DNA from: a virus
Direction: 5' to 3' (one strand)
Virus record (IMG/VR): IMGVR_UViG_3300006076_000003
Coordinates: 22,602-86,601 of that record
Length of the DNA stretch: 64,000 nucleotides
The notes under the pieces are model-generated. The model did not search any database. It was not told the DNA's origin and worked only from the letters and a program-made list of their open reading frames with translations. Every line of letters starts with the position of its first letter. The first letter of the stretch is position 1. Made by a program: the position numbers and the translations under genes. Shown piece by piece: positions 22,530-55,493 of this stretch.

Positions 22530-24500
22530 ATGCAAATAAATAAAAATCAAATATTAACATCCTTAAAAGCCGATTTAGCTAATTCTAAAACATTTCATGA
22601 TGAATGGAGAATTAAGGTTGATAAGTATAAACGTGAAACTTATGCTAAACCGTATGGAAATGAGAGAAAAGGTAAATCACGTATTGTAAGTGCTGATATA
22701 AAAAGGCAACTTGAAAGTATGATACCTTCTATCATTGATCCATTTGTATCATCACCAGAAGTATTTAAATGCTATCCAGTTACTTTTGAAGACACAGAAG
22801 CAGCAAGGCAAAATGAATTATTGCTAAACACACAATTCGTTAGGAAATTTAATCGATACAACTTCATTAATAAAGCTTGTAGAGTACTTGCTACTGAAGG
22901 TACAGTAGTTATACAAACTGGTTGGGAAACTGTTGAAAAACAAGTTAAAGATATTGTTGAAATTATTGAAGTTTTGCCTGATGGTACTGAATATATTACT
23001 GAAAAAGAAGTGATGCGTACTGTCAAAGTAAAAAATCAACCAACAGCAATAATTCGCAGAAATGAAGATATATTCTTTGATCCTACTGCAATGGATGAAC
23101 AGGATAAAATGCAATTTGTTATTGTACGCTATGAAGCAGATTACAGCACATTGAAAAAAGAAGGAAAGTATAAAAATTTAGAAAAAGCATTTATGCCTGA
23201 TCCTAATTGGGATGGTAGTTATATACCTGAAGATACAACATATTTTAAATTTAAAGATAAAGCAAGAAAAAAAGCAGTTGTGTATGAATACTGGGGTAAG
23301 TACGATATTAACAATGATGGTATTGTAGAGAATATTGTTTGTACTTGGATTGGTGATACAATCATTAGATTAGAAGATAATCCATATCCAAATGGTGAAT
23401 TACCATTTATTATTGTACCATTTAGCACTATACCATTTCAATTGCCTGGTGAAGCTTTAGCAGAAAATATAGGCGATAATCAAAAAGTTAAAACAGCATT
23501 GATTAGAGGTACAATTGACAATCTTGCTGCAAGTAACAATGGACAAATTGGTATTAGACAAGGTGCTTTAAACCCAATTAATAAAAAAAGATTTTTAAGT
23601 GGTGATAATTTTGAATATGCTGGTACAGTAAACGACTTTTGGCAAGGTAACTATAATCAAATACCAAGTAGTGTATTTAATGTTATGTCATTGATGAATG
23701 CTGAGATTGAAAGTCAAACAGGGGTACGTTCTGCTGGAGCATTAGCTGGTAATGGTGCTTTAGGTGAAACAGCAACAGCAGCAAAAGGAGCAATGGATGT
23801 TTATGCTATGCGAACATTAAATATTGTTCGTAATATTGCAGAAAATTTAATGAAACCACTTGCACGTAAATGGATGGCTTACAACTCTGAATTTTTAGAA
23901 CCAGAAGAGGTTGTTAGAGTAACAAATAGTCAATTTGTACCTGTAAGGCGTGATGACTTATCTGGTAGAGTTGATATTGATATAACAATTAATACAGCAG
24001 AAGATAATGCTGCACGTAGACAAGAACTGTCATTCTTATTGCAAACACTTGGTAATACTATCCCATTTGAAATGACACAGCAAATACTTGCAGAAATTGT
24101 TAAACTTAGTAAAAATCCTAAATTAGAAAAAGAAATAAAAGAATTTCAACCACCTAAAGATCCATTACAAGACGCTCTTAAACAATTAGAAATAACAAAA
24201 ATACAATTAGAAAATGAACGATTAAAAGCTGAAATAGCAGATAAATATGCAAGAGTAGATGAAAATAAAGTAGATGTAGAATTAAAATTACGCAAAGCAG
24301 AAGTAGAAGCTGCTAAAGCAAGAAAACTTAATAAAGATGCTGATAAAACTGAATTAGATGTTATAGATAAAAATTATGGTTTTAAAGCACAATTTGAAGC
24401 AGAAGAAAAAGAAAGAGAAAGACAACACCAAGTTGAAATGGCTAAGATTCAGGCTATGCTTGGTGGACCAAATGAACAAATAGGAGTAACAGAAAAATGA
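22530..24500 (+). CDS. Portal protein (N4 gp59-like)
   Basis: KGKSRIV..DIKRQ, PVTFED..AARQNELLLNTQF, VYEYWG.YDINNDG, EEVVRVTN. Confidence 0.95.
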   Translation: MQINKNQILTSLKADLANSKTFHDEWRIKVDKYKRETYAKPYGNERKGKSRIVSADIKRQLESMIPSIIDPFVSSPEVFKCYPVTFEDTEAARQNELLLNTQFVRKFNRYNFINKACRVLATEGTVVIQTGWETVEKQVKDIVEIIEVLPDGTEYITEKEVMRTVKVKNQPTAIIRRNEDIFFDPTAMDEQDKMQFVIVRYEADYSTLKKEGKYKNLEKAFMPDPNWDGSYIPEDTTYFKFKDKARKKAVVYEYWGKYDINNDGIVENIVCTWIGDTIIRLEDNPYPNGELPFIIVPFSTIPFQLPGEALAENIGDNQKVKTALIRGTIDNLAASNNGQIGIRQGALNPINKKRFLSGDNFEYAGTVNDFWQGNYNQIPSSVFNVMSLMNAEIESQTGVRSAGALAGNGALGETATAAKGAMDVYAMRTLNIVRNIAENLMKPLARKWMAYNSEFLEPEEVVRVTNSQFVPVRRDDLSGRVDIDITINTAEDNAARRQELSFLLQTLGNTIPFEMTQQILAEIVKLSKNPKLEKEIKEFQPPKDPLQDALKQLEITKIQLENERLKAEIADKYARVDENKVDVELKLRKAEVEAAKARKLNKDADKTELDVIDKNYGFKAQFEAEEKERERQHQVEMAKIQAMLGGPNEQIGVTEK

Positions 24501-38758: not shown

Positions 38759-40456
38759 ATGAATAACTCTAACCCATTTTATAATGCACTATCACAATAT
38801 GATAGTTACCTTAAAGAAAAAGGTTTAAGAGAAGCTTTTAACTCAACACCAAAACAAACTAATCCATTTGATTATGATGGAATTGGTGCAGAAGTAAATG
38901 ATGCTTATGAAAAATTAGCTCAACAAGATGCTAAATATAATACTTATGGACCAAGTGATAAAGTACTAAAACTAAACAAAGTTATACAAAGATTTTATAA
39001 TGTAAATAAAGACAGATATTCTAATGAAGATTTTGATAATTATAGAAAACAAACAATTAGTAATTTAGTACAAAAAGGTTATGGTATTGATGATGCTAAT
39101 AAAATATGGAGCACAATAGCAGAACAGAAATTTGGTGATAAGTACACAGATAAACAAGCAGCATTAGATAAACAAAATGCAATTAATGTCTTTAAAGCAA
39201 AATATCCAGGTAATTTGTTAACAAAACTTGTTGGCTCAGGTAGTTCTACTAAAGGTACAAAAGATTATAAAGTTGTCACTAAAGATAATAACTTTGATGC
39301 AGCCTCACTTAAAGAATGGTTATTAGATCCTAAAACACAACATTTAACAGGAGCTACATCTCATGTACCATTTAGTGATGTAGGATTAGCACATTATATC
39401 AGTAATCATTATGGTGGTATACCTGTGGATAATGCTAATTTTATTACTTCTGCTATTCAAGGCCTAAACGAAAAATTGCATGAGAAAGGATTACCTCCTG
39501 TAAATACCCAAACAGCAAAAAATTTATTACTCTCTGCAACTAATACTGGTAAAAAAGGTTATGGAGAATTTAATGGAATAATGTCAAATACATTCAAAGA
39601 GGAAATTAAAACACCTGAAGACCTCTCATTAAGACTTTTAAAAATAATGAATGCTGAAGGATTAAGCAATAATACCAGTGAAAGGAGTCGTAAAAATGCT
39701 GCATCACAAGCTGCAGCAGTTAATAGTTTATTACATAACACACAATATAAAAAAGATTATTCTACCTTAGAAAAAAGATTAAAAGATATTGACAGTAAAA
39801 TAGGAAGTAGGCGTAAAGTTGGTTTTGTTGGTTTAAATGATATCAACAAAATATATGATGGTACTTTTGATAAATTAGATACACCTGAAACACAACCAAA
39901 AGAACAAACTACAAATAAATCAGAAAATACAGCAATATCTGAGATCATTGCAAAAATGGAAAAAGATAAAAAAGATAGAGCAAATGACCCTATGCCTAAA
40001 GATTTAACAGGACAAACAATTTATAATCTATTAGCTCAACTACATAAAAAGAATGGTGAAGATAATATCCCAATTAGATTACCTAAATTTAAAACACAAG
40101 AACAAAAAGTTAACTATGCTAATTTCTTAAAACAACAATTAGGTATACCATCTCAGCCAGAGATTAATTTTAAGACACCTGCAGATGGACAACCAATTCC
40201 AGTTATTAAAGATGAATCAACATCATCTATAAATAATAGTAATAAGCATTTATTTAAAAGTCAAGTTAACAATACAGTTAAAAAATTAATTAATAACTTA
40301 CCACCAGAAGAAAAAGCTAAAGTTAAAGCAATTGCTGAAAATCAAGGAACTTCTATGGTAAGAGCATATAGAATATATGTTTCTACATTAAAAAATGAAT
40401 CAAAAATACCAGCAAGTGATGTTGGAGATCTTGTTGTACTAGGAGGTAAAGGATGA
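38759..40456 (+). CDS. Ejection protein (N4 gp51-like position)
   Basis: 565 aa, no Cys, precedes vRNAP. Confidence 0.6.
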   Translation: MNNSNPFYNALSQYDSYLKEKGLREAFNSTPKQTNPFDYDGIGAEVNDAYEKLAQQDAKYNTYGPSDKVLKLNKVIQRFYNVNKDRYSNEDFDNYRKQTISNLVQKGYGIDDANKIWSTIAEQKFGDKYTDKQAALDKQNAINVFKAKYPGNLLTKLVGSGSSTKGTKDYKVVTKDNNFDAASLKEWLLDPKTQHLTGATSHVPFSDVGLAHYISNHYGGIPVDNANFITSAIQGLNEKLHEKGLPPVNTQTAKNLLLSATNTGKKGYGEFNGIMSNTFKEEIKTPEDLSLRLLKIMNAEGLSNNTSERSRKNAASQAAAVNSLLHNTQYKKDYSTLEKRLKDIDSKIGSRRKVGFVGLNDINKIYDGTFDKLDTPETQPKEQTTNKSENTAISEIIAKMEKDKKDRANDPMPKDLTGQTIYNLLAQLHKKNGEDNIPIRLPKFKTQEQKVNYANFLKQQLGIPSQPEINFKTPADGQPIPVIKDESTSSINNSNKHLFKSQVNNTVKKLINNLPPEEKAKVKAIAENQGTSMVRAYRIYVSTLKNESKIPASDVGDLVVLGGKG

Positions 40457-43400
40457 ATACACTAGATGATTTAACACACGAATATCTAAGTTCCCTTAGT
40501 CCTGAAAGTTCTTCATTACCTGAAGAACCAACAGGTTATGCTACTCCTCAATTAAACAAACCTGCAGTTGTTAATACACCATCAGGATACACTGATGCTG
40601 AAATTAACGCAATGATTGCTGATAGAAATAAAGACATAGCACCAGAATCAGATTACATGGATGAGATACAAGCATCTTTATATAGAGGTGCACAATTAAT
40701 AGGTAGGGGTGGAGCTGATGCATTAAGTTGGGGTGCAGATAAATTAGGTATACCACAAGCTTCTAAATTCTTAGACTCTATTGACTGGAAGTCAGATGAT
40801 GAGATAAATGATGCAGTTGGGTATGATCCATCAGCAGCTGAATTAGCCTACCAAAAACAAAAAGATGCTTATAAAGCTTTTACAAAAAATGTTGATTTAA
40901 GTTCTGGTTGGGATTTAGTTACAAGTACAGCAAATACTTTGCCACATATGTTAGCTGACAATGCTGATATTATAGCAACATTAGCACCTAATCCTTTAGG
41001 ACCTGAAGCATATATTGCTGGTAAATTTGCATCTGGAGCTGAAAAGGCAGCACAAGCTGCAGAAGCTGCTAAATTAGCAAATAGCTCTAAAGCACTTGAC
41101 CGTATTAAAGCAGTTGGTCAAGCTCCTAAAACACAAGTTGGAGTTACAAGTAAATTAGTGCAACCTGAAGCACAAACACTAAGTAAATTTGCTAAATCTC
41201 CATTATCACATGATGAAATTGCTATGGCAAGACAAGCAATCTTAAAAGATGCACAACAATTTAAAAAAGCTAAAAATGCTGAGATTGAATCAAATTTAAA
41301 ACTTGCTGATAGACTAAGAACAGTAAACAACTATGTACCTATAAATAAACGTTCAATATTATATGGCTCTGGAATGGCAGCAGAAAATAATAGAAAATTT
41401 GCTGAAAACAATGATGGTGAAGGTAGAGATTTATTAACAAACATAGCTGATGCAGTAGCAGAAACAGCATTATTAGGTGCAACATTACGTGCTGGAAAAG
41501 ATGCAGTAGGACTTGGTAGTGGAGCTAAAGAAGCTGTTAAGAATATATTTACAGACACTGCAAAATCCGTAGAACATGCTATGGCAAATGGTGCAAAAGA
41601 TGAGATAAAATCATCAGTAGCAAATAGTGCAGCACAAGTTGCTAAGCTATTTGGTGAAGGTGCAGCAGTAAACTATACTCAAGAGTGGTTACAAATATTA
41701 GGACAACAACTAAACTCTAAAGATAAGGGTGACTTAATGTCAGTCATATCTGATAAAAAGAATCAAGATAAAGCAAATATTGCAGCAATATCTGGTGCCG
41801 CATTAGCTGGAGCTCCTAAAGTAGCATATCATGCAGCAAAAGTACCTTTAAACATTGGTACAAGTGCTATATCTGCTGGTGTTAAAAAAGTTAAAGACAG
41901 AGTAGCAGAAAAAGCTAAAGCAGCTAGCCTTGCTGTTCTACCTGCTGAAGAGCGTGAAAGACTACATGCTCAACATGTAGCACGTAAAAAAGCACAAGAA
42001 AGTGAAATTAAGTTACATGAAAAAGCTTTAGAAGATATTGCTAAAGCTGAAACTTTTGAAGATTTACAAAATATAAAAGATGCAGCAGTACAGGAAAAAG
42101 TAAATGATATTATTGATGATCACTTTGGTTCTAAAACACTACATAAGCAAATCAATGAAGCAAAAACTGTTGATGACTTAAAGGGTATATCTGATGTTAT
42201 TGATACTAAGGTAAATCAAAAACTAAAAGAAAATTCTGAATACAGTTTGGATAAACTAAAGCAAGACTTGATTTATGAAAATAGACAAGATCACTTAACA
42301 AAAAACCAAAAAGGTAATGCTGATAGTATTAGAAATGCTACAACAGTTGATGAATTAAACAACATTGCTGGATTAAACAAACAACAAAAAGGTGCTGTAT
42401 TTGCTCAAGAGAAAAATATATTTAGACCTGATGCAGAAATAGATATTGGTGAAGGACAAACAGTACAAGGTAAAATAATTGATACAAGTCCAGATGGTAC
42501 TAAACATCAAGTTAAATATATTGATCCTCAAACTAAAGAAGCTAAAACTAAGACAGTTACAAATGATAAAGTAACACCATTATCAGCTGATAAAGTTGAT
42601 TTAACACATCATAATGAAAGACTTAATAAGTTAAAAAATTATTTGCTTAAAGTTGAGAAAGAAAGCAATCCAAGCATAACAGATAAGCTAAATAGTAATG
42701 TGGAAAGTATTAAAAATTATGCAATTGCACAACATAAAGGAGCTATTGCAACTAAAAAACTTTGGATCGAAAAGCAAAGAGCATCTGATTATCTTGGTGC
42801 AGCATTTGATAGTTCTAAACGAGGCTTTAAAGCTATGAGTGAAAAAATATCACCTGAGACAAGAGAAGCAATAGCAAATACTTTAGGAACAGCAAAACAA
42901 TTAACAAATGATACTATTAATACAATGGTTGATCTGGCTAAAGAACCTGAAAAGTCTGCAGTTAGAGGTATGTTTACTGACTTACTTAATGGTAGAATGA
43001 ATGAAAGACTTTATGACTTATCCGATAAACAACTTGATGAACTATCACCTAAATTAGCAGGTAATAAAAAAGCACAAGATATTGTTTATATGATTAAGAA
43101 AAACAGAAATAAAGCTAAAAAAGAATTTGGATTAGATACTGAAGAAGCATCTAAAGGAGGATTTTTAGGTAAATTAGATGCTATGACAAATTCACCTATT
43201 GCTTATAAACTGTATGGATTAATGTCAGCAGGTGTGGATAAAATTAAAGATACAGCAACACTTAATAAAGTAAAAGATACATTTGATAGCATTACAGAAG
43301 AAGATGTTAAAAATATGGATAAGGAAGAAAAACAAGTTTATGACACAGTAGCTAAAGATATTGAAATAGCAAAACAAAACTTACAGAATAAAAAAGATGA

Positions 43401-44016
43401 AGTTATAAATGCTAAAGAAAAAGATTTAAACACCAAAGCTGAAGACAGTAAAAAAGTAGTTACTGATTACTTTACTGAACATTTACCTGAAAACTCTGAA
43501 ATAGCAAAAGTACTTACAAATCCTGAAGAACATAAAGATTATAAACAAGCAGTTGAAAAAGATGTTAAACAATTAGTAGAAAACAATGATTTAAATAGTC
43601 TAAAAGAACTATATAGAGTTGCTCATGCTGTAAATTCACGAAACATGCTAAACGGTAGTATAGCTGACTTATCAAAAGAAATTGAAAATGCAATAGTACC
43701 AATAGATGAAGATGCTGAATTAAGTGATTATGCAATCATTAAACATAGTAAAGATGGTATAACAGATGAAACATATAACCAAGTAGCTGATTTAATAAAT
43801 ACAGCAAGTGAAGATGCAACACATGAACTAAGTAATGAGATGCTATCAAAATTTGCTAAACAAGCACAAGAACTCCACGATGAATCTGAAAAATATTCTG
43901 CTCTTAAAGCTAAATTAGATACAATTCAAATAACAGAACCAAAAGAGTTAGAAAAAGCTATGAAAGATATTGAAAAAATAGCTAAAGAATTAAACATTGA
44001 TATATGTAAAATATAA
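40453..44016 (+). CDS. Virion RNAP N-terminal part / large ejection protein
   Basis: Ala/Gly-rich, GEGAAVNYTQE..Q, ISGAALAG; single Cys at position -3. Confidence 0.7.
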   Translation: MNTLDDLTHEYLSSLSPESSSLPEEPTGYATPQLNKPAVVNTPSGYTDAEINAMIADRNKDIAPESDYMDEIQASLYRGAQLIGRGGADALSWGADKLGIPQASKFLDSIDWKSDDEINDAVGYDPSAAELAYQKQKDAYKAFTKNVDLSSGWDLVTSTANTLPHMLADNADIIATLAPNPLGPEAYIAGKFASGAEKAAQAAEAAKLANSSKALDRIKAVGQAPKTQVGVTSKLVQPEAQTLSKFAKSPLSHDEIAMARQAILKDAQQFKKAKNAEIESNLKLADRLRTVNNYVPINKRSILYGSGMAAENNRKFAENNDGEGRDLLTNIADAVAETALLGATLRAGKDAVGLGSGAKEAVKNIFTDTAKSVEHAMANGAKDEIKSSVANSAAQVAKLFGEGAAVNYTQEWLQILGQQLNSKDKGDLMSVISDKKNQDKANIAAISGAALAGAPKVAYHAAKVPLNIGTSAISAGVKKVKDRVAEKAKAASLAVLPAEERERLHAQHVARKKAQESEIKLHEKALEDIAKAETFEDLQNIKDAAVQEKVNDIIDDHFGSKTLHKQINEAKTVDDLKGISDVIDTKVNQKLKENSEYSLDKLKQDLIYENRQDHLTKNQKGNADSIRNATTVDELNNIAGLNKQQKGAVFAQEKNIFRPDAEIDIGEGQTVQGKIIDTSPDGTKHQVKYIDPQTKEAKTKTVTNDKVTPLSADKVDLTHHNERLNKLKNYLLKVEKESNPSITDKLNSNVESIKNYAIAQHKGAIATKKLWIEKQRASDYLGAAFDSSKRGFKAMSEKISPETREAIANTLGTAKQLTNDTINTMVDLAKEPEKSAVRGMFTDLLNGRMNERLYDLSDKQLDELSPKLAGNKKAQDIVYMIKKNRNKAKKEFGLDTEEASKGGFLGKLDAMTNSPIAYKLYGLMSAGVDKIKDTATLNKVKDTFDSITEEDVKNMDKEEKQVYDTVAKDIEIAKQNLQNKKDEVINAKEKDLNTKAEDSKKVVTDYFTEHLPENSEIAKVLTNPEEHKDYKQAVEKDVKQLVENNDLNSLKELYRVAHAVNSRNMLNGSIADLSKEIENAIVPIDEDAELSDYAIIKHSKDGITDETYNQVADLINTASEDATHELSNEMLSKFAKQAQELHDESEKYSALKAKLDTIQITEPKELEKAMKDIEKIAKELNIDICKI

Positions 44017-44030
44017 GGGAGATTATTTAA

Positions 44031-47000
44031 ATGAGTAAATGTATACCATTAGAAGACTTGGCAGGTCTACTTGAAAAAGTAGATGTGTCTAAATTCAGCA
44101 ATGATGGAAAACTTGCTAATAAAGACTTCAGATTTGAAACAAAAGATATACCATTTTCTGCAATACTTAACACATTACAAGATGGTAAAGGTGAATTTGG
44201 TGATACATCAATTATTGATAGAATGGGTAATTTAGGTTATAAACTAAATTGGGTGAGAGAAAGATTATCTAAGCCAGATGCCTTAAATACTATACCTGAA
44301 GAACTTAGAGAAACAGAAAATGAAAGAGGTTTACTAAGAACAATAGCATTAACTGAAGTGATTGATTCATCAAGAGGTGAAGCATTTAAAGTAAATAAAT
44401 ATAATGCTGATTTAAAAAAAGTAAGTGATAGCTATGGAAATGCTACTGAAATAAGAATGCCTTTTGCACGTGTAGCAGCAGTCATAGGTAGAAAAATAAT
44501 GCAAAGTAGAACAGGACTTGTATTTGGTGAAGGTGATGCAACTAAAGCATCAGCAGCTAAGATAGAACAAGCTTATCAAACAATTGGTGAAGCTGCATTA
44601 AAAGATTTAGAAAAAGCTGGTTTTATTAAATTACATGATAAAGCAAGTGTAATAAATGACTTTGCATTTACTAATGAAGATGGTATAACAAGAATTGCTG
44701 CACAAGACCCTAAAACACGCTATACAACAATGAAAGCTGTATCATTAAATGTTTCAAAAGATAGTAGATTTAGAAAACTCTATGGTGATGAATTATTTGA
44801 TAGTTATGTTAAAGATATAATGGATACCACAGGTGACGAAGATTTAAAGTCCTTCATAGATGAAGTAAATGAATTAGATGAAAATGATATTAAATCTTAC
44901 GAACTAAAAGAACAGTATAATAAATTAAGAAACTTTAATGCTTATATAGCAGGTGTTAATAGAGTAGCAATACCTACAACATTTGTAGATGTTAAAACTG
45001 AAGCACCAGATAGTATAGAAAATGACAGAGATGTTATGGAAAGAGCTACTGATGAGTATAAAGAAGGAGTTAAATCATTAAATGAGACAAAACAGCATGT
45101 AAAAAAACCAATACTTAACTTCCTTAAAGATTTAGCAGAAGTCTATAAATCTGAGAAAAAACCTTTAAAATCTTTAGTTAGATACTTAGTTGGTAACAAC
45201 ATTAGTACAAAAGATAAGCAGCAATTTGAGGAAGTGTTAAACAGCATATTTGGTTTATACAGCAAAGATATACATACATCTTACTCAAAAGCATCTATTG
45301 CTGGTAAAAACACATCAATCTTATCACCGCTTGAAGATATGTTAGGACATATTGATAGTATTACAGATGAAAAAGGTGAACCTAAATATTTCCACAATAC
45401 ATCACATATTGGAGCAAATGGACGTGAGTATTATGATTCAGCATACCTAAGTATTCAAGCTAATAAAATTGTAAGAGATATTATTAGTGTTGGAGATAAA
45501 GAAGATAAAACATTTAACATTCATAAAGATAAAGAAGCATATAATCAATTTATAACTTACCTAATGGATGCTTTACCAAGTAAATTAACAGAAGGTAAAG
45601 ATGAAACGGCAATCTTACAAATGTTAAAAGGTGAAGATAAATCAGATAAAACTTTTGAATACTTGTTAAGTAAAGTAGATACTTTAACAGCAGACAAAGC
45701 AGATATTGCTGATAGATTAATAGCATTAGGGGAAATAAATGCTAACCTAAAAGGTAAAGACCAAGTTAAAAATCCTTCATTTATGCATAATGCCTCTGTA
45801 CTATTGGCTGTAAAAGATTTAAGAAAAGCAGTAGAAGGTGATGGAACACTTACAACAGATTTTCTTGCTGACCCAGATGCAACAGCAAATGGTGCTACAC
45901 TTAAATTAGCAGAAGCTGCAAGAGATGCAAATAATGAAAAAGCAAGGGAAATATTAGGAGCCGTTGGAGTTATTGGAGATAATAAACAAGTAAGTGATGT
46001 TTACAATTATGTAAATAAATTTATTTTAGAGCCATCCATAACTAAAGCATTAGAGTCTAAGGACACTCCAGAAGAAAGCAAAAATGCACCAGATGGTGTC
46101 ATAACATTTAGTAAAAAAACAAGAGGATTTGATAAAGCTAATGCAACATTAATGCAAAAGATTATCAAATATGTATATGAAGATAATATGCGTGAATTTG
46201 CTAAACTACCAACTATGACATTAATCTATGGACAGGGGGAACATGCCTCAAAACTAACAATAGCAAAAGGCGTAGCTACTAAGATGGGTGTAATGTTTCA
46301 CGGCATTAAAAGTAAAAAAGAATTAACAGAAGCACATAAATTTGTGTTAGATTTATTAGGTGAAGATAAGGATAAATTAGATGCTATACACTTAACAGAA
46401 AAAGATGTAGCAACATTAACAAATAAATTCAAAGATAGTATAGCAGCAAATGTACAGCATTTAATGAAAGATGCTTTTTATAAAAAAGGTTCTGGAGCAT
46501 TAGCAGATTTTAAAGAGGTATCAACAGATTTATTTAATTTAGCACAAGAGCTGCATAAAAAAGGTAAGGACAATCCTAAATTTAATGAAAGAATTAAGGA
46601 ACAAAAAAACAAAGTTCTATTGTTAAAAACGCAGCTAAAAGAAGAAAAAGCTAAAGCAAAAAGAAATAGAAGACGAAAAAAATTAAAACTTGACAAAACT
46701 AATTTTGAAAAAGAAGATGTAAAAGGAATGTCAGAAAAGCTTGAGAAAGAAAGAAGCAAGTTACGAAATATGCTTTATATGAAAGAGCATTTAATGATGT
46801 TACCTCCTCACGTAAATGATGCAAAAGTATTACCGAGAAACCCATACATTGGCTTTAAGTTAGAAAAACAATTTAATGTCTATGACCCTAAAACAGGCAC
46901 TATCACAAATAAACCATTACCAACTCAAACAGTGTTTGATGTAAGTGCAACACATATGGTAGATAGTTACAATCAAGTAGCATCTGGCGGACATTATCTT

Positions 47001-50000
47001 AACTTATTTGATGCTAAATTCTTGAACCCAAAATATGCAGCACAAGCAGTTAAAGATTATTCAGAACAAATGAGCAATAACATAAATAACTTTAGTAAAA
47101 TTGAATCATTGCATAAAACATTAGAAGTATACAATGACATATTTTTTGATAAAGACAGCAAAGAACATAAACAATTTGCTAATCGTATTGCAGCAATTAA
47201 AAATAAATTTAATGGTAAATTAGAAGTAAATAAAGAAGCTGGAGTATTATTTGGTGAGAAAGTTATAGAAGATACAGTAGATCCTAATACTAAAAAAGCA
47301 ACATTGGATAATAATACTAAGAGTGAAGTGTCTATTACTACATTTAAATCTAAAAAATTAAGTGTAGAAAAGGCAAAAGAAAAAATTGATAATCTAAAAC
47401 AAGATATTAAAAATAACAATGTAGTTACGTACGATCTTGAAACTGATGGATTAATTAGCAAAGATGGAAAAACAATACCTAATGTAATACAAATAGGTTA
47501 TAAAGATGGAAACAAAGATATAAAAACAGTACATATAAAATTTCCTTCAAAAGAAGCATATAATAAATATGTTAATGGTATGGAATCTGAAAAAATTAGA
47601 AATAGTAAATTATTTAAAGAAGTTAGTAAAGGTTATAAAGAGTGGCAAGATAACGCAATATCTATCGATGAAGCATTAAAAATGTTTAATGATGTAGCTA
47701 AAAACAAAAAAACATTAACATTTAATGGTAATGGATTCGATAATGTCATTATGCAATCTTTATTTAATGAGCATAATTTAGACATAACACCATTTAAAGA
47801 TAGTAATACATATGATATAAGAGAAATAGATTTAGGACTTAATAATTATGATACTTTTAAAGGTACATTAGAAGATAAAGTAAATGAATATGACTTAAGT
47901 TCTAAAGAAAATCAAGAAAATTTACATAATGCAGATTTTGATGTAGATATGACTTATAAATTAGCAAATGCATTAATTGACGTAAAAGATTTAAATAGTG
48001 AATTAAATAAACTTGCTAAAGAAACTGATTCACCTATAATCAACACTTTTGTTACACTGCAAGGAAAAACAAAAACTAAGATGCGTAGTGGTGAGAATAG
48101 TAAATTTAGTAGTAAACAAAATACAATTTATATTGCAGGTCCTTTAGATAAAACTGTTGTAGAACATGAGATATTACATAGCTTTACAACACTATGGATT
48201 AAAGATAACAAAAATGATTCATCTTATAAATACTTGCAAAAAGCACTGCCTAAACTAAGAGAATTGAACATTGCTGAATTAAAAGATATATTAGCTAATG
48301 ATGATGAAACAGCAATAGCTGAGTTAATAAGTACAATGGGTAGTAATATGGAACTGGCTAAAAAAGTCTATAAAACTATTGATAGCAGCAAAACAATATT
48401 ACCAGCTACAAGACTAAGAAATGTTATCAACAAAGCAATAAAAGCAATTATAAAATGGGTTGGTAGTGAAAAAGCTTTAGAAAGATTAGAAAAAGAAGGC
48501 TTAAATACAGAAGATTTAGCAAATGCTATTAACACAGCAATTGGAAAGAGTATCAATGATGTACAAAATAGAGCAACAAACTTTAATAAAGAGGTTAAAG
48601 CAGTAGATAAAACATATAATTTTATGGGTGGTGTTGGAAAGATACATGAAGCAATAGAGGATAAAGTTGAAAAAATTAATGCTTTATCTGTGAGAGTTAT
48701 AACAGAGCCAGTAGAGCACAAAGCTGAAGTAATAACTAAAAATGTTGATAGAATATTATCAGAAAAGTATCCTACATATTTTAGAGCTAAAGAATATGCT
48801 ATTGGAGTATATAACAGTTCTGAAGCACTGCAACAACTTATGCAGTATATTGCTACACCAGAAAAGTTAATTAGCAGAAAAAATGAGGTATTAACATTAT
48901 CGAATAAACTTAACAAAGAAACAACTGATAGAACAAATGAAGCATTAAATAATATACACCACTTAACAAGAGATTTTAGTAAAAATGAAAAACAAGTACT
49001 TGGCAACATAACAACAAAAATACCATTACATTATATTTATGCATTTGCACCAGATTTAAAAGACTTTAGTGGAAAAATAAAAGAATTAGAAAGTAACCTT
49101 AACAAAGATGGTTTAAGAAATGTAGATAATATTGTAAGTTTATGGGTGGATGGGGTAGTAAAAGATACTAATTTATACTCACTAGAAGATACTTATGGAA
49201 CAAGTGACTTAGCTAACAATATTAAATTATTAGCAGCACTTAAAGCTTTAGAAAAAGTTGATAAAAACTTTGAGTTATCAACAAAAATAATGGATAAACA
49301 TTTAGACTTATATAGAACAATTAAAGACCATTCAATGGCTTTATATCTTACACACAAAGACATTTTAGCTAATACACCAAGTAAAATAGCAATGAAAGAT
49401 GTACAAGTTGTACCACACTACAACAAACTTATACATAAAAAAGTATTTAGCTACAAAGATAGAGATAAGATGCAATATAGTGATAAAAATGGTTGGAATA
49501 TAATACAACAACCTACAAAAGACGGCAAAATTGGTATAGCATATAAAGAGATTATTGATACACAGTCAGCTGAAGGTACTGGTGTAGAACTACAACTACC
49601 TGAAACAGATATTACTGTACCTGAGAAGTATATAAACAATGGATATGTTGATGTACATAATAACAACATTGTACATACAGCAGATGGTTATAAATTGATA
49701 TTAACAGCAGAACAAGAAAAGCAAATTGGCATATTGGAAACACCAGCAGAAAGTCTTGTTAGATCTACCAATAACATGATACATCTTAAAGAAACAGAAG
49801 TTATAAGAGATAGATTAGCAGAAAAAGCATTTACTGCTGAGTTAACTAATGACAGTACTAAAGAAATAGCAAATGAGATACAATCTAAAGTAATTGATCA
49901 TCCTTGGTTCTTAAAAGTACCAGATGACATTAACTATGCTGACTTAGCAAATAGCACAGATCCTAACATGCGATTAATACATGCACATTATAAACCAATA

Positions 50001-51197
50001 CAACGTAAAATGTCTAAAGTTGGTGGCTTTGATAAAAAAGTTACTTGGGTTAGAAAAGATGTAGCACATTGGCTTGTAGGATTTAATAAAGGACCTTTAT
50101 TTAAAAGCAAGTTAGGACAACAAATATCAAGAATAACAAAAAATATAGTGTCATTAGCAAAAATTAATATGGCTATTGCTAACCCTATGAAGCTAGTAAA
50201 AGATGCAGCATCATCTGTTAATCAGCTTATTATAATGGGAGTGCCTGCAACATATATAGCAAAAACATCTAAAGACTTTTTTAATGATTTAAAAGAATTT
50301 AAAAGAGTACAAACAAAAATAGCAGCATTGCAACTAAAACATTATGCCGACCCTAACAATGAAGCAATAACTAAAAATATAGCAAAATTAAATGAGCAAT
50401 TAAAAGATAATAGCGTAGCTAAAGCATCAGAACATGGCTTTGTTAACTCACTTAGCTCAGATGTAGTAAGTCATAATGCACAAACAAGATATGGTTTAAC
50501 AGCAGATGTAGATAATGTACTAAAAAAAGTATTTACAAAAGATGGAGAAACAGCAAATAAGTTAGGTGAACAAATATTAAAACTTAGCAAATTTGGTGGA
50601 TGGAATGGTATAACAGCATTAGATAGAGTAGCAGATTATGTTGAAGTAATACCTGGAATGGAAGGCAAATTAGAAGGTGTTCATACAGTAATGCAAGAAC
50701 TTAACAATGTTAGAACAGAAGAAGATGTTGTTAGTATGATGCGTCAATGGACCCTATCGCCTAACTCTGAATTTGTAAAAGCAGGTATTGAAGTAAATGA
50801 CTTTATAGATGCATCATCTAAATATACATACTTTAAGTACTTAACTGAAGAAAAAGGTTATACAGAAGAAGAAGCAGTTACTGAAGTAATGAAAGCTGTA
50901 CCAGATTATAAAGAAGTTATGCCATCATCAATGAAATTAGCATCTGACTATGGTATATTGATGTTCCCTTCTTACTGGACAAGAATACAACGTGCTATTT
51001 ATATGATGGGTAGATATAGACCAGCATCTTTAATTGCTGAAATAACAGCTGCAGATATATTTGATTTATCACATTTATCAGGATTAACAATCTTAGATAG
51101 CAATATTTATGATAAAACATTAGATATGGGTGGTGCAATACATACACCTCTACAAGCAGCTAAATCAGGATTTATCTACCCTACTCATTTGATCTGA
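44031..51197 (+). CDS. Virion-associated RNA polymerase with DEDDh exonuclease and HExxH domains
   Basis: NGREYY, motif A DPDATANG, motif B REFAKLPTMTLIYGQG, motif C LFDA; YDLET/FNGNGFD/HNADFD; HEILH. Confidence 0.9.
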   Translation: MSKCIPLEDLAGLLEKVDVSKFSNDGKLANKDFRFETKDIPFSAILNTLQDGKGEFGDTSIIDRMGNLGYKLNWVRERLSKPDALNTIPEELRETENERGLLRTIALTEVIDSSRGEAFKVNKYNADLKKVSDSYGNATEIRMPFARVAAVIGRKIMQSRTGLVFGEGDATKASAAKIEQAYQTIGEAALKDLEKAGFIKLHDKASVINDFAFTNEDGITRIAAQDPKTRYTTMKAVSLNVSKDSRFRKLYGDELFDSYVKDIMDTTGDEDLKSFIDEVNELDENDIKSYELKEQYNKLRNFNAYIAGVNRVAIPTTFVDVKTEAPDSIENDRDVMERATDEYKEGVKSLNETKQHVKKPILNFLKDLAEVYKSEKKPLKSLVRYLVGNNISTKDKQQFEEVLNSIFGLYSKDIHTSYSKASIAGKNTSILSPLEDMLGHIDSITDEKGEPKYFHNTSHIGANGREYYDSAYLSIQANKIVRDIISVGDKEDKTFNIHKDKEAYNQFITYLMDALPSKLTEGKDETAILQMLKGEDKSDKTFEYLLSKVDTLTADKADIADRLIALGEINANLKGKDQVKNPSFMHNASVLLAVKDLRKAVEGDGTLTTDFLADPDATANGATLKLAEAARDANNEKAREILGAVGVIGDNKQVSDVYNYVNKFILEPSITKALESKDTPEESKNAPDGVITFSKKTRGFDKANATLMQKIIKYVYEDNMREFAKLPTMTLIYGQGEHASKLTIAKGVATKMGVMFHGIKSKKELTEAHKFVLDLLGEDKDKLDAIHLTEKDVATLTNKFKDSIAANVQHLMKDAFYKKGSGALADFKEVSTDLFNLAQELHKKGKDNPKFNERIKEQKNKVLLLKTQLKEEKAKAKRNRRRKKLKLDKTNFEKEDVKGMSEKLEKERSKLRNMLYMKEHLMMLPPHVNDAKVLPRNPYIGFKLEKQFNVYDPKTGTITNKPLPTQTVFDVSATHMVDSYNQVASGGHYLNLFDAKFLNPKYAAQAVKDYSEQMSNNINNFSKIESLHKTLEVYNDIFFDKDSKEHKQFANRIAAIKNKFNGKLEVNKEAGVLFGEKVIEDTVDPNTKKATLDNNTKSEVSITTFKSKKLSVEKAKEKIDNLKQDIKNNNVVTYDLETDGLISKDGKTIPNVIQIGYKDGNKDIKTVHIKFPSKEAYNKYVNGMESEKIRNSKLFKEVSKGYKEWQDNAISIDEALKMFNDVAKNKKTLTFNGNGFDNVIMQSLFNEHNLDITPFKDSNTYDIREIDLGLNNYDTFKGTLEDKVNEYDLSSKENQENLHNADFDVDMTYKLANALIDVKDLNSELNKLAKETDSPIINTFVTLQGKTKTKMRSGENSKFSSKQNTIYIAGPLDKTVVEHEILHSFTTLWIKDNKNDSSYKYLQKALPKLRELNIAELKDILANDDETAIAELISTMGSNMELAKKVYKTIDSSKTILPATRLRNVINKAIKAIIKWVGSEKALERLEKEGLNTEDLANAINTAIGKSINDVQNRATNFNKEVKAVDKTYNFMGGVGKIHEAIEDKVEKINALSVRVITEPVEHKAEVITKNVDRILSEKYPTYFRAKEYAIGVYNSSEALQQLMQYIATPEKLISRKNEVLTLSNKLNKETTDRTNEALNNIHHLTRDFSKNEKQVLGNITTKIPLHYIYAFAPDLKDFSGKIKELESNLNKDGLRNVDNIVSLWVDGVVKDTNLYSLEDTYGTSDLANNIKLLAALKALEKVDKNFELSTKIMDKHLDLYRTIKDHSMALYLTHKDILANTPSKIAMKDVQVVPHYNKLIHKKVFSYKDRDKMQYSDKNGWNIIQQPTKDGKIGIAYKEIIDTQSAEGTGVELQLPETDITVPEKYINNGYVDVHNNNIVHTADGYKLILTAEQEKQIGILETPAESLVRSTNNMIHLKETEVIRDRLAEKAFTAELTNDSTKEIANEIQSKVIDHPWFLKVPDDINYADLANSTDPNMRLIHAHYKPIQRKMSKVGGFDKKVTWVRKDVAHWLVGFNKGPLFKSKLGQQISRITKNIVSLAKINMAIANPMKLVKDAASSVNQLIIMGVPATYIAKTSKDFFNDLKEFKRVQTKIAALQLKHYADPNNEAITKNIAKLNEQLKDNSVAKASEHGFVNSLSSDVVSHNAQTRYGLTADVDNVLKKVFTKDGETANKLGEQILKLSKFGGWNGITALDRVADYVEVIPGMEGKLEGVHTVMQELNNVRTEEDVVSMMRQWTLSPNSEFVKAGIEVNDFIDASSKYTYFKYLTEEKGYTEEEAVTEVMKAVPDYKEVMPSSMKLASDYGILMFPSYWTRIQRAIYMMGRYRPASLIAEITAADIFDLSHLSGLTILDSNIYDKTLDMGGAIHTPLQAAKSGFIYPTHLI

Positions 51198-53454: not shown

Positions 53455-53651
53455 TCCAATCCTTTATTTATGTTTTCCCAAAATTTGATATCTTTAACAA
53501 GTCTATCAACTTCTTTTGTAGATCTATCTTTATAATCTTTAGCAAGTTCTTCTTTTAACAACTTGCTTAAAATTACAACTCGTTCTGTAATAATATAGTG
53601 AGGTATTGGCGTTACTGCCAATCCCCTATAAACTTCTTCATTAGTTCTCAC
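53451..53651 (-). CDS. Hypothetical protein
   Basis: 66 aa coupled ORF. Confidence 0.65.
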   Translation of the reverse strand: MRTNEEVYRGLAVTPIPHYIITERVVILSKLLKEELAKDYKDRSTKEVDRLVKDIKFWENINKGLE

Positions 53652-54072
53652 AGGCTTCCAATTTTTGTTTTAGTTTTGTAATTAGTTCATTTAGTGTTTC
53701 ACTAATATTTTTACACTTGCTAAAATCTGCTGTATAAGGCTTTACAGACTTATCTTTTTGCCATTTTTCTTTATTTGCTAAATCAGGTTCTAAGCTCCAT
53801 CTTGCTTTCTGCTGTGGGTCTTGCTTTCTACTGCTAATTTCTTTAACTACTTCAGACATAACTTTATTTACGTCATATCCTTCTAACATTAATTCATTAA
53901 CAGAGAACACAATAATATCTGCTATTGCATCTATTCTACCACTCTCATCCATATTTGTTTTTGCTATAAAATATTCTTCTAATTCTTCCTCAATATTTTC
54001 TACATATTTTCCAGAAGGTTTAGTAATTTTTCTATCTCTTAACCATTTCTTTAACTCTAAAACCCAACTCAT
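53641..54072 (-). CDS. MazG-like / PRA-PH NTP pyrophosphohydrolase
   Basis: IEEELEEY...IDAIADIIVF...EV.KEI.SR. Confidence 0.8.
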   Translation of the reverse strand: MSWVLELKKWLRDRKITKPSGKYVENIEEELEEYFIAKTNMDESGRIDAIADIIVFSVNELMLEGYDVNKVMSEVVKEISSRKQDPQQKARWSLEPDLANKEKWQKDKSVKPYTADFSKCKNISETLNELITKLKQKLEACEN

Positions 54073-54089
54073 ACTAATCCTTTTAAAAT

Positions 54090-54875
54090 TTATTTACACA
54101 TACAACCAATAGGGTATTCTTCTTCTAAATAATTTGTTGGTTTACCTTTTTGCTCGTATGCTTTAAATTTCTCTTCTAACTGCTTATAGGTATAATCTTT
54201 AAACAAATATACTCCAGCACCTTCTCGTTCATATCTTTTTTGTGTTTCTACAATATATTCCCACTGTTCAGGATATATTTTATAGATCTTATATAAACTT
54301 GTTAGTGATTGTTTTGGACAATTAAAACAACCTGTCCTATGAAATGTATTGTATAGTGGATTATGTAATCCTCTTTTTACCATTTCTTTTGCAATATAAT
54401 CTTCTGTTATTTTCCAGTCAAATAAAGGATAGATCTCATTATTTGCTTTAATTCTTTTTGGTTCATTATATGCAATTCCTACATACACATATACATTTGA
54501 GTTATGATATTTATCTTTAATATGTCTATTAAATGGATATACTTTCAACTCTCTAGTACACCAACTCATTCCCATATGGAATGGAAATCCTCTTTTTTTA
54601 CCTTTGAATTGTCCTTTTGTAAATGGTGTTTCAGCAAATTTATCCCATATCTCTTTACCTTTTCCATAGTTAAGTAATGTAATTTTTACATCATGATATT
54701 TAGCTTCCCAATATTTTTTTACTTTTTCTATGTACTCATACATTATTGGAAATTCGTGTCCAGTATCACAAAAAACTATTTCATCAAGTTTTTCATTTCT
54801 TTTTAATAGTTCATCTATCATATATGTACTATCTTTTCCACCAGACCAAGAAGCCACATATATATCTTTTTTCAT
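54090..54875 (-). CDS. PAPS-reductase-family (PP-loop) protein
   Basis: SWSGGKDS, FCDTGHEF, WCTRELK, RTGCFNCP. Confidence 0.9.
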   Translation of the reverse strand: MKKDIYVASWSGGKDSTYMIDELLKRNEKLDEIVFCDTGHEFPIMYEYIEKVKKYWEAKYHDVKITLLNYGKGKEIWDKFAETPFTKGQFKGKKRGFPFHMGMSWCTRELKVYPFNRHIKDKYHNSNVYVYVGIAYNEPKRIKANNEIYPLFDWKITEDYIAKEMVKRGLHNPLYNTFHRTGCFNCPKQSLTSLYKIYKIYPEQWEYIVETQKRYEREGAGVYLFKDYTYKQLEEKFKAYEQKGKPTNYLEEEYPIGCMCK

Positions 54876-54878
54876 TTT

Positions 54879-55493
54879 CTACCTTTTGTTATTTTCAACA
54901 TAATCACTAAAAACGTGAGGGAATTTATCTGCTAATAATACCGCTATCTCGTTAGCTACTGCTCTAATCTCCCATTGAGCGTGTTTATCTGTTCTAAGCT
55001 TAATGAACTGTGTCCACATTTGCAAATTACCAGAAACGTATAGGTCTGTTGTTATTGCTCTTGTTAAAGCATATCTTGCGTCTTCTTTTTTAACACCTAA
55101 ATCAATAAGATTGTTATATGCAGATTTGCTATATTCATTAATAAGTCTAAAAGCTTCTAAAGCATTAGCTTTTTTACCTTCATCAAGATAATCACATGGT
55201 GGTATAACAAAATCTCTATCACTTTGATTTACATATCTTTGACTTTCCCATAAATGGCTATCACTGTCAAGGATATCAGCAAAGCTTGTTCTTAATGTTT
55301 GAACAGCTGTGATTGTTGATATATCTTCTATTTTAATAACTGCAAAGCCAAATCTAAAAGTTGCTAAATGTTTATGCTCTTTTAGTTTAGTTATTAGCTC
55401 TAAGTTTTTAGGTTTTGAGTTATAGCAGATAGCAGATGATGTTGCTATCATTTCCTCTGTTCTATTGTTCCAATCTTCTAATGTTACTTTCAT
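54879..55493 (-). CDS. thyX: Flavin-dependent thymidylate synthase
   Basis: ESQRYV, GVKKEDARY, N...W..FIKLR..KHAQWEIR. Confidence 0.85.
   Translation of the reverse strand: MKVTLEDWNNRTEEMIATSSAICYNSKPKNLELITKLKEHKHLATFRFGFAVIKIEDISTITAVQTLRTSFADILDSDSHLWESQRYVNQSDRDFVIPPCDYLDEGKKANALEAFRLINEYSKSAYNNLIDLGVKKEDARYALTRAITTDLYVSGNLQMWTQFIKLRTDKHAQWEIRAVANEIAVLLADKFPHVFSDYVENNKR

Follow-up and report, generated by a model that had tools for sequence, protein, structure and literature searches.

Can a single-subunit RNA polymerase that enters the cell together with phage DNA carry a nuclease of its own, and what would such a nuclease do at the point of entry? The question is raised by one gene in a 64,000-nucleotide stretch of IMG/VR virus record IMGVR_UViG_3300006076_000003 (positions 22,602 to 86,601; this whole stretch is called the window below), where an initial annotation made from the sequence alone had placed a DEDDh 3'-5' exonuclease inside the virion RNA polymerase (vRNAP). 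To our knowledge, textbooks describe the single-subunit T7/N4-type RNA polymerases as enzymes without any nuclease. The two identities taken together, an N4-type polymerase and a DnaQ-like DEDDh domain, are regarded as nearly certain. The motifs quoted earlier (ExoI, ExoII, ExoIII, and HEILH) all lie in one uninterrupted open reading frame (ORF), with catalytic residues D1135/E1137, D1237, and H1299/D1304 present; coordinates of all features are given in Table 1.

The embedded segment is, as judged from profiles and a structural model, a DnaQ-like DEDDh exonuclease domain of intact appearance. It is matched by PHROG 192 'DNA polymerase exonuclease subunit' (E 8.4e-10) and by PADLOC 'DEDDh' (E 5.3e-7, 138 of 139 profile positions), the latter model also matching the distant relative P0008 (E 3.2e-8); the PHROG and PADLOC libraries have no curated cut-offs. 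Further profiles stayed under their cut-offs, namely Rv2179c-like (21.7 bits; cut-off 27), RNase_H_2 (20.9; 22), and an NCBIfam epsilon subfamily (17.5; 186). In an AlphaFold2 (AF2) model built from a three-sequence alignment (246 residues; mean predicted local distance difference test score, pLDDT, 69; core 80-93), the topology b1-b2-b3-aA-b4-aB-b5-aC follows the order of the DnaQ fold. D1135 and E1137 are on predicted strand 1 (model residues 32-39), and model residues 13-28 form the helix of the N-terminal linker, with low pLDDT ahead of it. The DEDDh set is complete: D-x-E on strand 1, the ExoII aspartate, the H-x4-D of ExoIII that defines the 'h' subtype, and an RNase H-like alpha/beta fold.

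Comparison of the model with 48,161 representative chains (VIA-align) gave 31 with Z >= 8, headed by a Staphylococcus aureus DinG chain (residues 2-178; 11.8), a DNA polymerase chain (11.5), Cap18 (11.0), and RNase T (10.8), and followed by ExoI (10.6), epsilon (10.5), Cas2-DEDDh (10.3), and T4 DexA (10.3). Among the 19 best rows (Z 11.8-9.0), 17 are named exonucleases or exonuclease-bearing chains; the remaining two bear the titles 'DNA polymerase with inhibitor' and 'putative uncharacterized protein'. Foldseek against the Protein Data Bank (PDB) gave nothing at E <= 0.001 (best 1.8e-3), though the rows listed were all DEDD nucleases. Against BFVD, five rows fell at E <= 0.001; the named ones are viral stand-alone exonucleases or helicase-exonuclease fusions, with no RNA-type polymerase among the named neighbours. 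A weak hhalign match to Escherichia coli epsilon (E 0.095) places D1237 on D103 and H1299/D1304 on H162/D167. The nearest ESM Atlas clusters, taken as a lead only, are viral stand-alone RNase_T-family proteins of 225-301 amino acids (aa; score 0.91-0.92). The DnaQ/RNase T fold proposed in the initial annotation is thus borne out by PHROG 192, PADLOC DEDDh, the AF2 model, and VIA-align, the structure prediction suggested there having returned a DEDDh fold with a best Z of 11.8. Searches of PDB sequences also gave chance rows, RPN9 with the domain alone (phmmer/hmmsearch, E 0.05) and iota toxin component Ib with the three-sequence domain profile (E 0.04-0.07), the latter rejected as spurious.

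The catalytic pentad (D36, E38, D138, H200, and D205 of the domain alignment) is invariant across the three proteins that carry the domain, at 31-38% identity, which would not be expected without selection on catalysis. The nuclease is accordingly predicted, with good confidence, to be catalytically active. It would hydrolyse the 3'-terminal nucleotide by a two-metal reaction at D1135, E1137, D1237, and D1304, with H1299 as the general base. After strand 3 the family has a helical insert of its own (47640-47700, aa ~1174-1212), in which E1187, N1191, S1192, and W1205 are invariant within an IR-NSK..W block common to the three members; here P0007 is longer by ~45 residues. The insert could be a substrate-binding or docking element.

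The 2388-aa protein that carries the domain is, on the evidence of a predicted fold, a relative of the N4-type single-subunit vRNAP. Its sequence as a whole matched no PHROG family at E <= 0.01 and no polymerase family in Pfam at E <= 1, and PDB sequence searches gave chance rows only, both with the whole protein (best an oxidoreductase, E 0.21) and with a profile of seven relatives (RIPK1, E 0.09). An AF2 model of aa 1-1090 (alignment of five database relatives; pLDDT 58.8) gave 14 Foldseek rows against the PDB at E <= 0.001, of which the first seven are all N4 mini-vRNAP/gp50 (3c2p_B, 3c46, 3c3l, 9pnq, 2po4, 9pnr; E 8.3e-6 to 9.9e-5), 3c2p_B being best (E 8.3e-6, probability 1.00); T7 RNA polymerase and yeast mitochondrial RNA polymerase follow. 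At the other end of the protein, the profile of seven relatives aligned with N4 gp50 aa 3125-3490 over 323 columns (hhalign probability 90%, E 1.6e-6).

Within the polymerase domain (Pol), hhalign to N4 is weak and collinear: GANGREYY falls on the N4 'TRVGR' stretch (TxxGR, E 0.014), and motif B, REFAKLPTMTLIYGQG, pairs with N4 'RGIAKNPLTITIYGSG' (E 0.01). Residues R465, D616, R721, K725, Y733, and D994 do not vary among the seven relatives; the motifs around them are those that we take, from the N4 literature, to be T/DxxGR, A, B, and C. Motif C reads LNLFDAK in this clade, and in T7 an H-D pair stands there. The distant relative P0008 has VVVHDE at that site, as judged by eye, and the aspartate of motif C alone is invariant.

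Against GenBank phage proteins, the sole relatives of the ORF are those of two Alteromonas podophages, PT11-V19 and R22Y (25-27% identity), the homologue being annotated 'RNA polymerase' in one of the two. The gene is the last of a plus-strand block that opens with portal (PHROG 1216, E 6e-167) and major head (PHROG 1357, E 3e-76) genes. From the homology and from this place after the portal and capsid genes, the product is very likely a virion protein that would be injected with the DNA, as in N4. The canonical gp50 form, a single chain of ~3500 aa with an N-terminal ejection domain, was not found, the ORF having 2388 aa and beginning at Pol, which makes the protein an N4-type vRNAP relative of split layout and not a canonical gp50.

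The vRNAP seems to be split into two genes. The candidate for the missing part is the 1187-aa ORF directly upstream, which has no PHROG family at E <= 0.001 and, as best Pfam match, NUP120_helical below its cut-off (E 0.0018, 19 bits vs 27.7). In the Alteromonas phage an ORF of ~1000 aa likewise stands directly upstream, and BLASTP joins it to the 1187-aa ORF at E 0.044 only. A tie of the 1187-aa ORF to the N-terminal domain of gp50 was established neither by PHROG nor by Pfam or BLASTP. Split vRNAPs are described for two N4-like phages in sections of PMC10654107.

Where the exonuclease sits relative to the polymerase can be read from the relatives. The last Pol block common to all of them is GVLFGEK (aa 1071-1077), and the next common block begins with PIINTF (aa 1335). 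In N4, according to passages of PMC13492108, Pol ends at residue 2104 and the start of the C-terminal domain (CTD) lies at 2123-2124, with an unresolved flexible 'linker 2' between them. From these boundaries and the N4 layout it follows that the exonuclease takes the place of linker 2. It is located in the Pol-CTD linker, between the Pol core and the HExxH region and outside the catalytic core, so that 'fused inside the virion RNA polymerase' holds for the N4-type protein as a whole and not for its core. The domain does follow motif C as first described, D1135 standing 141 residues after D994 in place of the 'about 135 aa' given then.

At the start of the CTD, the seven relatives all have H1379, E1380, H1383, and E1431. 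Judging by this conservation, HEILH and E1431 look like an intact zincin-type metal site that matches the metallopeptidase (MPTase) of N4 gp50. Parts of PMC13434306 assign an HExxH to subdomain C1 of the N4 CTD, and the gp50 HExxH region (aa 2130-2448) is unified with zincin metallopeptidases in sections of PMC5512222. The HEILH listed earlier as following the exonuclease is thus present and can be refined to the zincin-like peptidase module already described there for N4-like RNA polymerases.

The flanks of the exonuclease are stretches of low confidence in the model or absent from relatives. P0003, the closest full-length relative, has an unrelated, coiled-coil-like insert of ~130-170 residues in the same linker (the position of window 47262-48030), and the Pol-CTD linker appears to be an insertion hot spot. 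An insert of similar size and different kind at one site, which suggests that the linker tolerates any filler, is also what a catalytically silent module, serving between Pol and CTD as a spacer or for docking, would lead one to expect, and the pseudo-nucleases Exuperantia, Maelstrom, and ESRP1 are among the fold matches (Z 7-9). Such a silent role is improbable, given the five catalytic residues that are invariant in three proteins of 31-38% identity.

Table 1 Features of the vRNAP gene and its upstream neighbour. Positions are those of the window; aa, residues of the 2388-aa product unless stated otherwise.
Feature	Position	Strand	Remarks
vRNAP gene	44031..51197	+	One uninterrupted ORF, 2388 aa: Pol core, linker, DEDDh exonuclease, HExxH (MPTase-like) region, helical CTD
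Pol domain, aa 1 to ~1085	44031..47285	+	N4/T7-type right-hand fold (AF2 and Foldseek)
GANGREYY, candidate T/DxxGR motif	45411..45434	+	G461, N463, R465, Y467 invariant
DPDATANG, motif A	45870..45893	+	D616 invariant; assigned by eye
REFAKLPTMTLIYGQG, motif B	46191..46238	+	R721, K725, Y733 invariant
LNLFDAK, motif C, aa 990-996	46998..47018	+	D994 invariant
N-terminal linker, aa ~1078-1124	47262..47402	+	Low complexity, then one helix
DEDDh (DnaQ-like) 3'-5' exonuclease domain (predicted), aa ~1125-1331	47403..48023	+	PHROG and PADLOC profiles, AF2, VIA-align
ExoI VTYDLETDG, aa 1132-1140 (D1135, E1137)	47424..47450	+	Invariant in the three domain carriers
ExoII TFNGNGFD, aa 1230-1237 (D1237)	47718..47741	+	Invariant in the three domain carriers
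ExoIII LHNADFD, aa 1298-1304 (H1299, D1304; H-x4-D)	47922..47942	+	Invariant in the three domain carriers
CTD start, HExxH (zincin/MPTase-like) region	48033..48530	+	HEILH aa 1379-1383 at 48165-48179; E1431 at 48321-48323
C-terminal region, aa 1986-2373	49986..51149	+	Homologous to N4 gp50 aa 3125-3490
Upstream ORF, 1187 aa, candidate split-off N-terminal (ejection) part	40453..44016	+	Position alone; ends 14 nt before the vRNAP start

The layout of an exonuclease within a vRNAP is rare. A phmmer search with the domain in 1,835,955,588 representative proteins (E <= 0.001) returned the query, P0007 (E 1e-12), and P0008 (E 3.5e-4) only, and thus no free-standing relative at that threshold. P0008, a vRNAP relative of 2304 aa, has the domain at residues 973-1169; P0007 is a 937-aa fragment that begins at the Pol end, with the domain at the same site. 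Five of eight relatives are without it: P0003, P0004, P0005, P0006, and the Alteromonas phage protein. A word-indexed search for the domain among long proteins recovered the query itself only (one of 1779 candidates), and a profile of the three domains, run against proteins of 472-2000 aa, found P0007 only (one of 8000 scored). Scans with ExoI/ExoII peptide patterns gave 597 matches in IMG/VR and 596 in JGI metagenome contigs, none confirmed in either. By tblastn against 50,697 GenBank phage records the domain met three records, all at E >= 0.3 and none a polymerase; the P0008 domain had no match at E <= 0.1 in GenBank phage records.

Among N4-like phages the junction itself was surveyed with gp50 aa 1950-2450 (tblastn, GenBank phages; one junction examined). 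Of the 226 records matched, 60 were sampled with spread, and in 57 of these the match crosses the linker. None of these 57 vRNAPs has an insert at the junction, the record span never exceeding the query span by more than ~12 nt. The survey of Schitoviridae vRNAPs that the initial annotation had called for therefore speaks for a fusion that is not common (0/57; three proteins in 1.84 billion), and its statement that such a fusion is undescribed for T7/N4-type enzymes agrees with a literature search in which none was found. An 'exonuclease' gene near the vRNAP of the Alteromonas phage was considered as a free-standing counterpart and rejected, being an AAA_24 ATPase.

Within the phage genome no paralogue of the domain was found (tblastn, next match E 6.6). 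Neither Pfam RNase_T nor DNA_pol_A_exo1 matched anything in the same genome at E <= 1; the exonuclease domain itself was missed, which marks it as strongly divergent. The family A DNA polymerase of the phage (L004 1396-4116, outside the window; 906 aa; PHROG 23226, E 3e-81) likewise shows no DNA_pol_A_exo1 or RNase_T match at E <= 1.

How the domain came to its present distribution was addressed with a tree built by maximum likelihood from the shared stretch of the CTD (eight rows, midpoint root). Two clades were obtained, each with 100/100 support, (P0008,(P0006, Alteromonas phage)) and (P0002,(P0007,(P0003,P0004,P0005))). In each clade the rows with the exonuclease branch off first, and two changes of the presence/absence label are needed. 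The tree would fit an exonuclease-bearing ancestor with two losses. Identity of the domain between the clades is 30-32%, not below the 22-24% of the flanks. Because the domains are each other's only detectable relatives and have diverged no more than their flanks, one ancient capture would be the simplest reading.

The two losses that fit the tree would mark the domain as accessory. It is probable that we are dealing with an accessory module, captured once from a stand-alone phage gene for a DnaQ-like exonuclease and then kept or lost by lineage, with RNA synthesis independent of it. The G+C content of the exonuclease segment (47421-47980) is 23.9%, compared with ~30% in the Pol and CTD parts and 30.4% in the genome. 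Recent acquisition as the cause was rejected, the domain being common to two deep clades and rich in Lys, Asn, and Asp; the low value probably comes from this composition and not from recent transfer.

What the nuclease would act on is a matter of graded likelihood. It would travel with the polymerase and act in cis on 3' ends at the entry site, and candidate substrates are a 3' tail of the entering DNA or exposed single strands near hairpin promoters. In N4, passages of PMC13434306 give 4 +/- 1 vRNAP copies per virion and describe the enzyme as staying anchored at the ejectosome. With so few copies, held at the entry channel, a local role is likelier than bulk degradation. Trimming of single-stranded DNA 3' ends is put first because the nearest profile and fold relatives are of the DNA type (PHROG 192, PADLOC Cas2-type DEDDh, the S. 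aureus DinG chain at residues 2-178, ExoI, and epsilon). Local action on the single-stranded 3'-OH ends of entering phage DNA is proposed tentatively, as somewhat less than an even chance.

The explanation as a whole, this role at DNA 3' ends included, falls just short of even odds, and a number of observations weigh against it. On the side of the domain, Pfam RNase_T reaches 16.3 bits (cut-off 24), 65 of the 246 residues of the exonuclease model are under pLDDT 50, and the three-sequence domain profile found no DEDD exonuclease below E 1 among PDB sequences (RNase T, E 1.3-2). The Pol model is of modest confidence (pLDDT 58.8). The tree has eight rows, one of them a fragment, is midpoint-rooted, and carries a long-branch warning for P0008. 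The genome ends are not defined by the contig, which has no terminal repeats and is classed as linear in IMG/VR. DEDDh enzymes switch readily between DNA and RNA; with RNase T and REXO2 among the best fold matches, this leaves the preference for DNA a weak one.

Another candidate substrate is made by the polymerase itself. The domain might trim or proofread the RNA 3' ends of the attached enzyme, removing misincorporated or backtracked nucleotides or cutting read-through early transcripts back to a structured barrier. The covalent tether, ~50 residues past the Pol end, would suit this, as would the presence of RNase T, REXO2, ISG20, 3'hExo, and coronavirus ExoN among the fold matches (Z 9-11). 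A direction toward transcripts is nevertheless judged unlikely: the best profile matches are of the DNA type; the domain appears to hang on flexible linkers, in contrast to the exonuclease of proofreading DNA polymerases, which packs onto the palm; and the polymerase does not depend on it, since relatives have lost the domain two or more times and no insert is present at the junction in N4 or in 57 of 57 sampled GenBank N4-like enzymes. The two losses among relatives argue against an obligatory proofreading role. It is a doubtful prospect, in the same way, that exonuclease and injected polymerase work as partners, which would make this the first T7/N4-type enzyme with built-in 3'-end editing or trimming, on transcripts or on single-stranded template at the entry channel.

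Among the close fold or profile matches are the CBASS-associated Cap18, Cas2-DEDDh, and the dinucleotidase REXO2. Together with a patchy presence and absence typical of arms-race modules, they would agree with a freely acting effector of counter-defence or takeover, comparable to the ART, BECR-RNase, and lysozyme domains of other N4-like RNA polymerases. Its targets would be nucleic acids of the host or of rivals, for instance DNA or RNA of defence systems with free 3' ends, or else linear oligonucleotide signals, and it might act after release by the HExxH peptidase. We consider this unlikely. About four vRNAP copies per N4 virion and an enzyme at the membrane channel, as given in parts of PMC13434306, suit a local role better, and N4 gp50 is reported in sections of PMC5512222 to be packaged unprocessed. 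In the main text of the latter, as far as covered, 'DnaQ', 'DEDD', and 'RNase H' do not occur, 'RNase T' occurs once, and 'exonuclease' is found in a reference title only.

The N4 vRNAP uses single-stranded hairpin promoters, according to passages of PMC13492108, and a 3'-5' DNA exonuclease that comes in with the first DNA might expose such promoters by long resection of the entering genome end, as the initial annotation had suggested among its proposals. This is highly improbable. If an N4-like layout is assumed, the 3'-terminal strand at the entering end would be the template of inward transcription, and its resection would destroy both template and promoters; N4 extrudes its promoters without such a domain, and the domain was lost twice in relatives. 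Local trimming at DNA 3' ends stands as the preferred role, at the strength given above.

Set beside coliphage N4 gp50 (2PO4, 3C2P, 9PNQ/9PNR/9PNT), the protein shares a T7-like Pol fold, an HExxH right after Pol, a homologous extreme C-terminus, a late/structural gene context, and a modular architecture of 'beads on a string' joined by flexible linkers (as described for gp50 in parts of PMC13492108). It differs in having ~250 residues, including the DEDDh exonuclease, where N4 has a short flexible linker (~2104-2123); in being 2388 aa long with a separate 1187-aa upstream ORF, in contrast to one 3500-aa chain; and in a Pol sequence similarity too low for significance in HMMER or hhalign. The word 'exonuclease' is absent from the searched text of two 2026 structure papers on N4 gp50 (PMC13492108, PMC13434306), and a full-text literature search found, among the papers listed and in part judged by title and abstract opening, none joining vRNAP or Schitoviridae with a DnaQ/DEDD exonuclease domain in the polymerase.

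The surprise of the fusion is lowered because N4-like RNA polymerases are known for variable extra effector domains; sections of Iyer, Burroughs, Anand, de Souza, and Aravind 2017 (PMC5512222) list lysozyme/transglycosylase, PBECR1 (BECR) RNase, and ART. RNA polymerase, DEDDh exonuclease, and HExxH region are found in one chain, as the definition of a polyvalent protein asks. As in the polyvalent proteins treated in parts of that paper, an RNA polymerase and a zincin-like MPTase hub are joined by lineage-specific enzymatic domains and delivered with DNA; unlike them, the domain here is a DnaQ/DEDD exonuclease, of which the main text, in the parts covered, makes no mention. It would add a new type of cargo to the polyvalent-protein idea and mark the Pol-CTD linker as a site of cargo insertion.

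The domain has the fold and the D-E-D-H-D set in common with DnaQ-like exonucleases that phages encode as stand-alone proteins (PHROG 192) and with DEDDh enzymes of cells (epsilon, DinG, ExoI, RNase T, Cas2-DEDDh); it differs from them in being embedded in a 2388-aa polymerase and in the helical insert after strand 3. DNA polymerases of family A that proofread, such as Klenow and T7 DNA polymerase, likewise combine a DEDD exonuclease with a right-hand polymerase of the same fold class in a single chain. Their exonuclease packs onto the polymerase, and the primer terminus is shared. The present domain differs in being of the DEDDh type, C-terminal of an RNA polymerase, flanked by apparently flexible linkers, and dispensable in relatives. 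In Trypanosoma brucei POLIB an exonuclease is inserted in the thumb, as stated in sections of PMC9731263.

A conserved, intact-looking exonuclease on the enzyme that enters the cell first points to an undescribed early step, which could be the processing of entering DNA ends, the editing or trimming of first transcripts, or the removal of host defence nucleic acids. The module is small (~200 aa) and easily expressed.

Two minus-strand ORFs, at 47057-47461 and 48368-49009, overlap the vRNAP gene and are regarded as by-products of AT-rich DNA (genome 30.4% G+C). Downstream of the polymerase, at 53641-55493 on the minus strand, are genes of nucleotide metabolism: PAPS-reductase-like, ThyX thymidylate synthase, and MazG/PRA-PH-like pyrophosphohydrolase.

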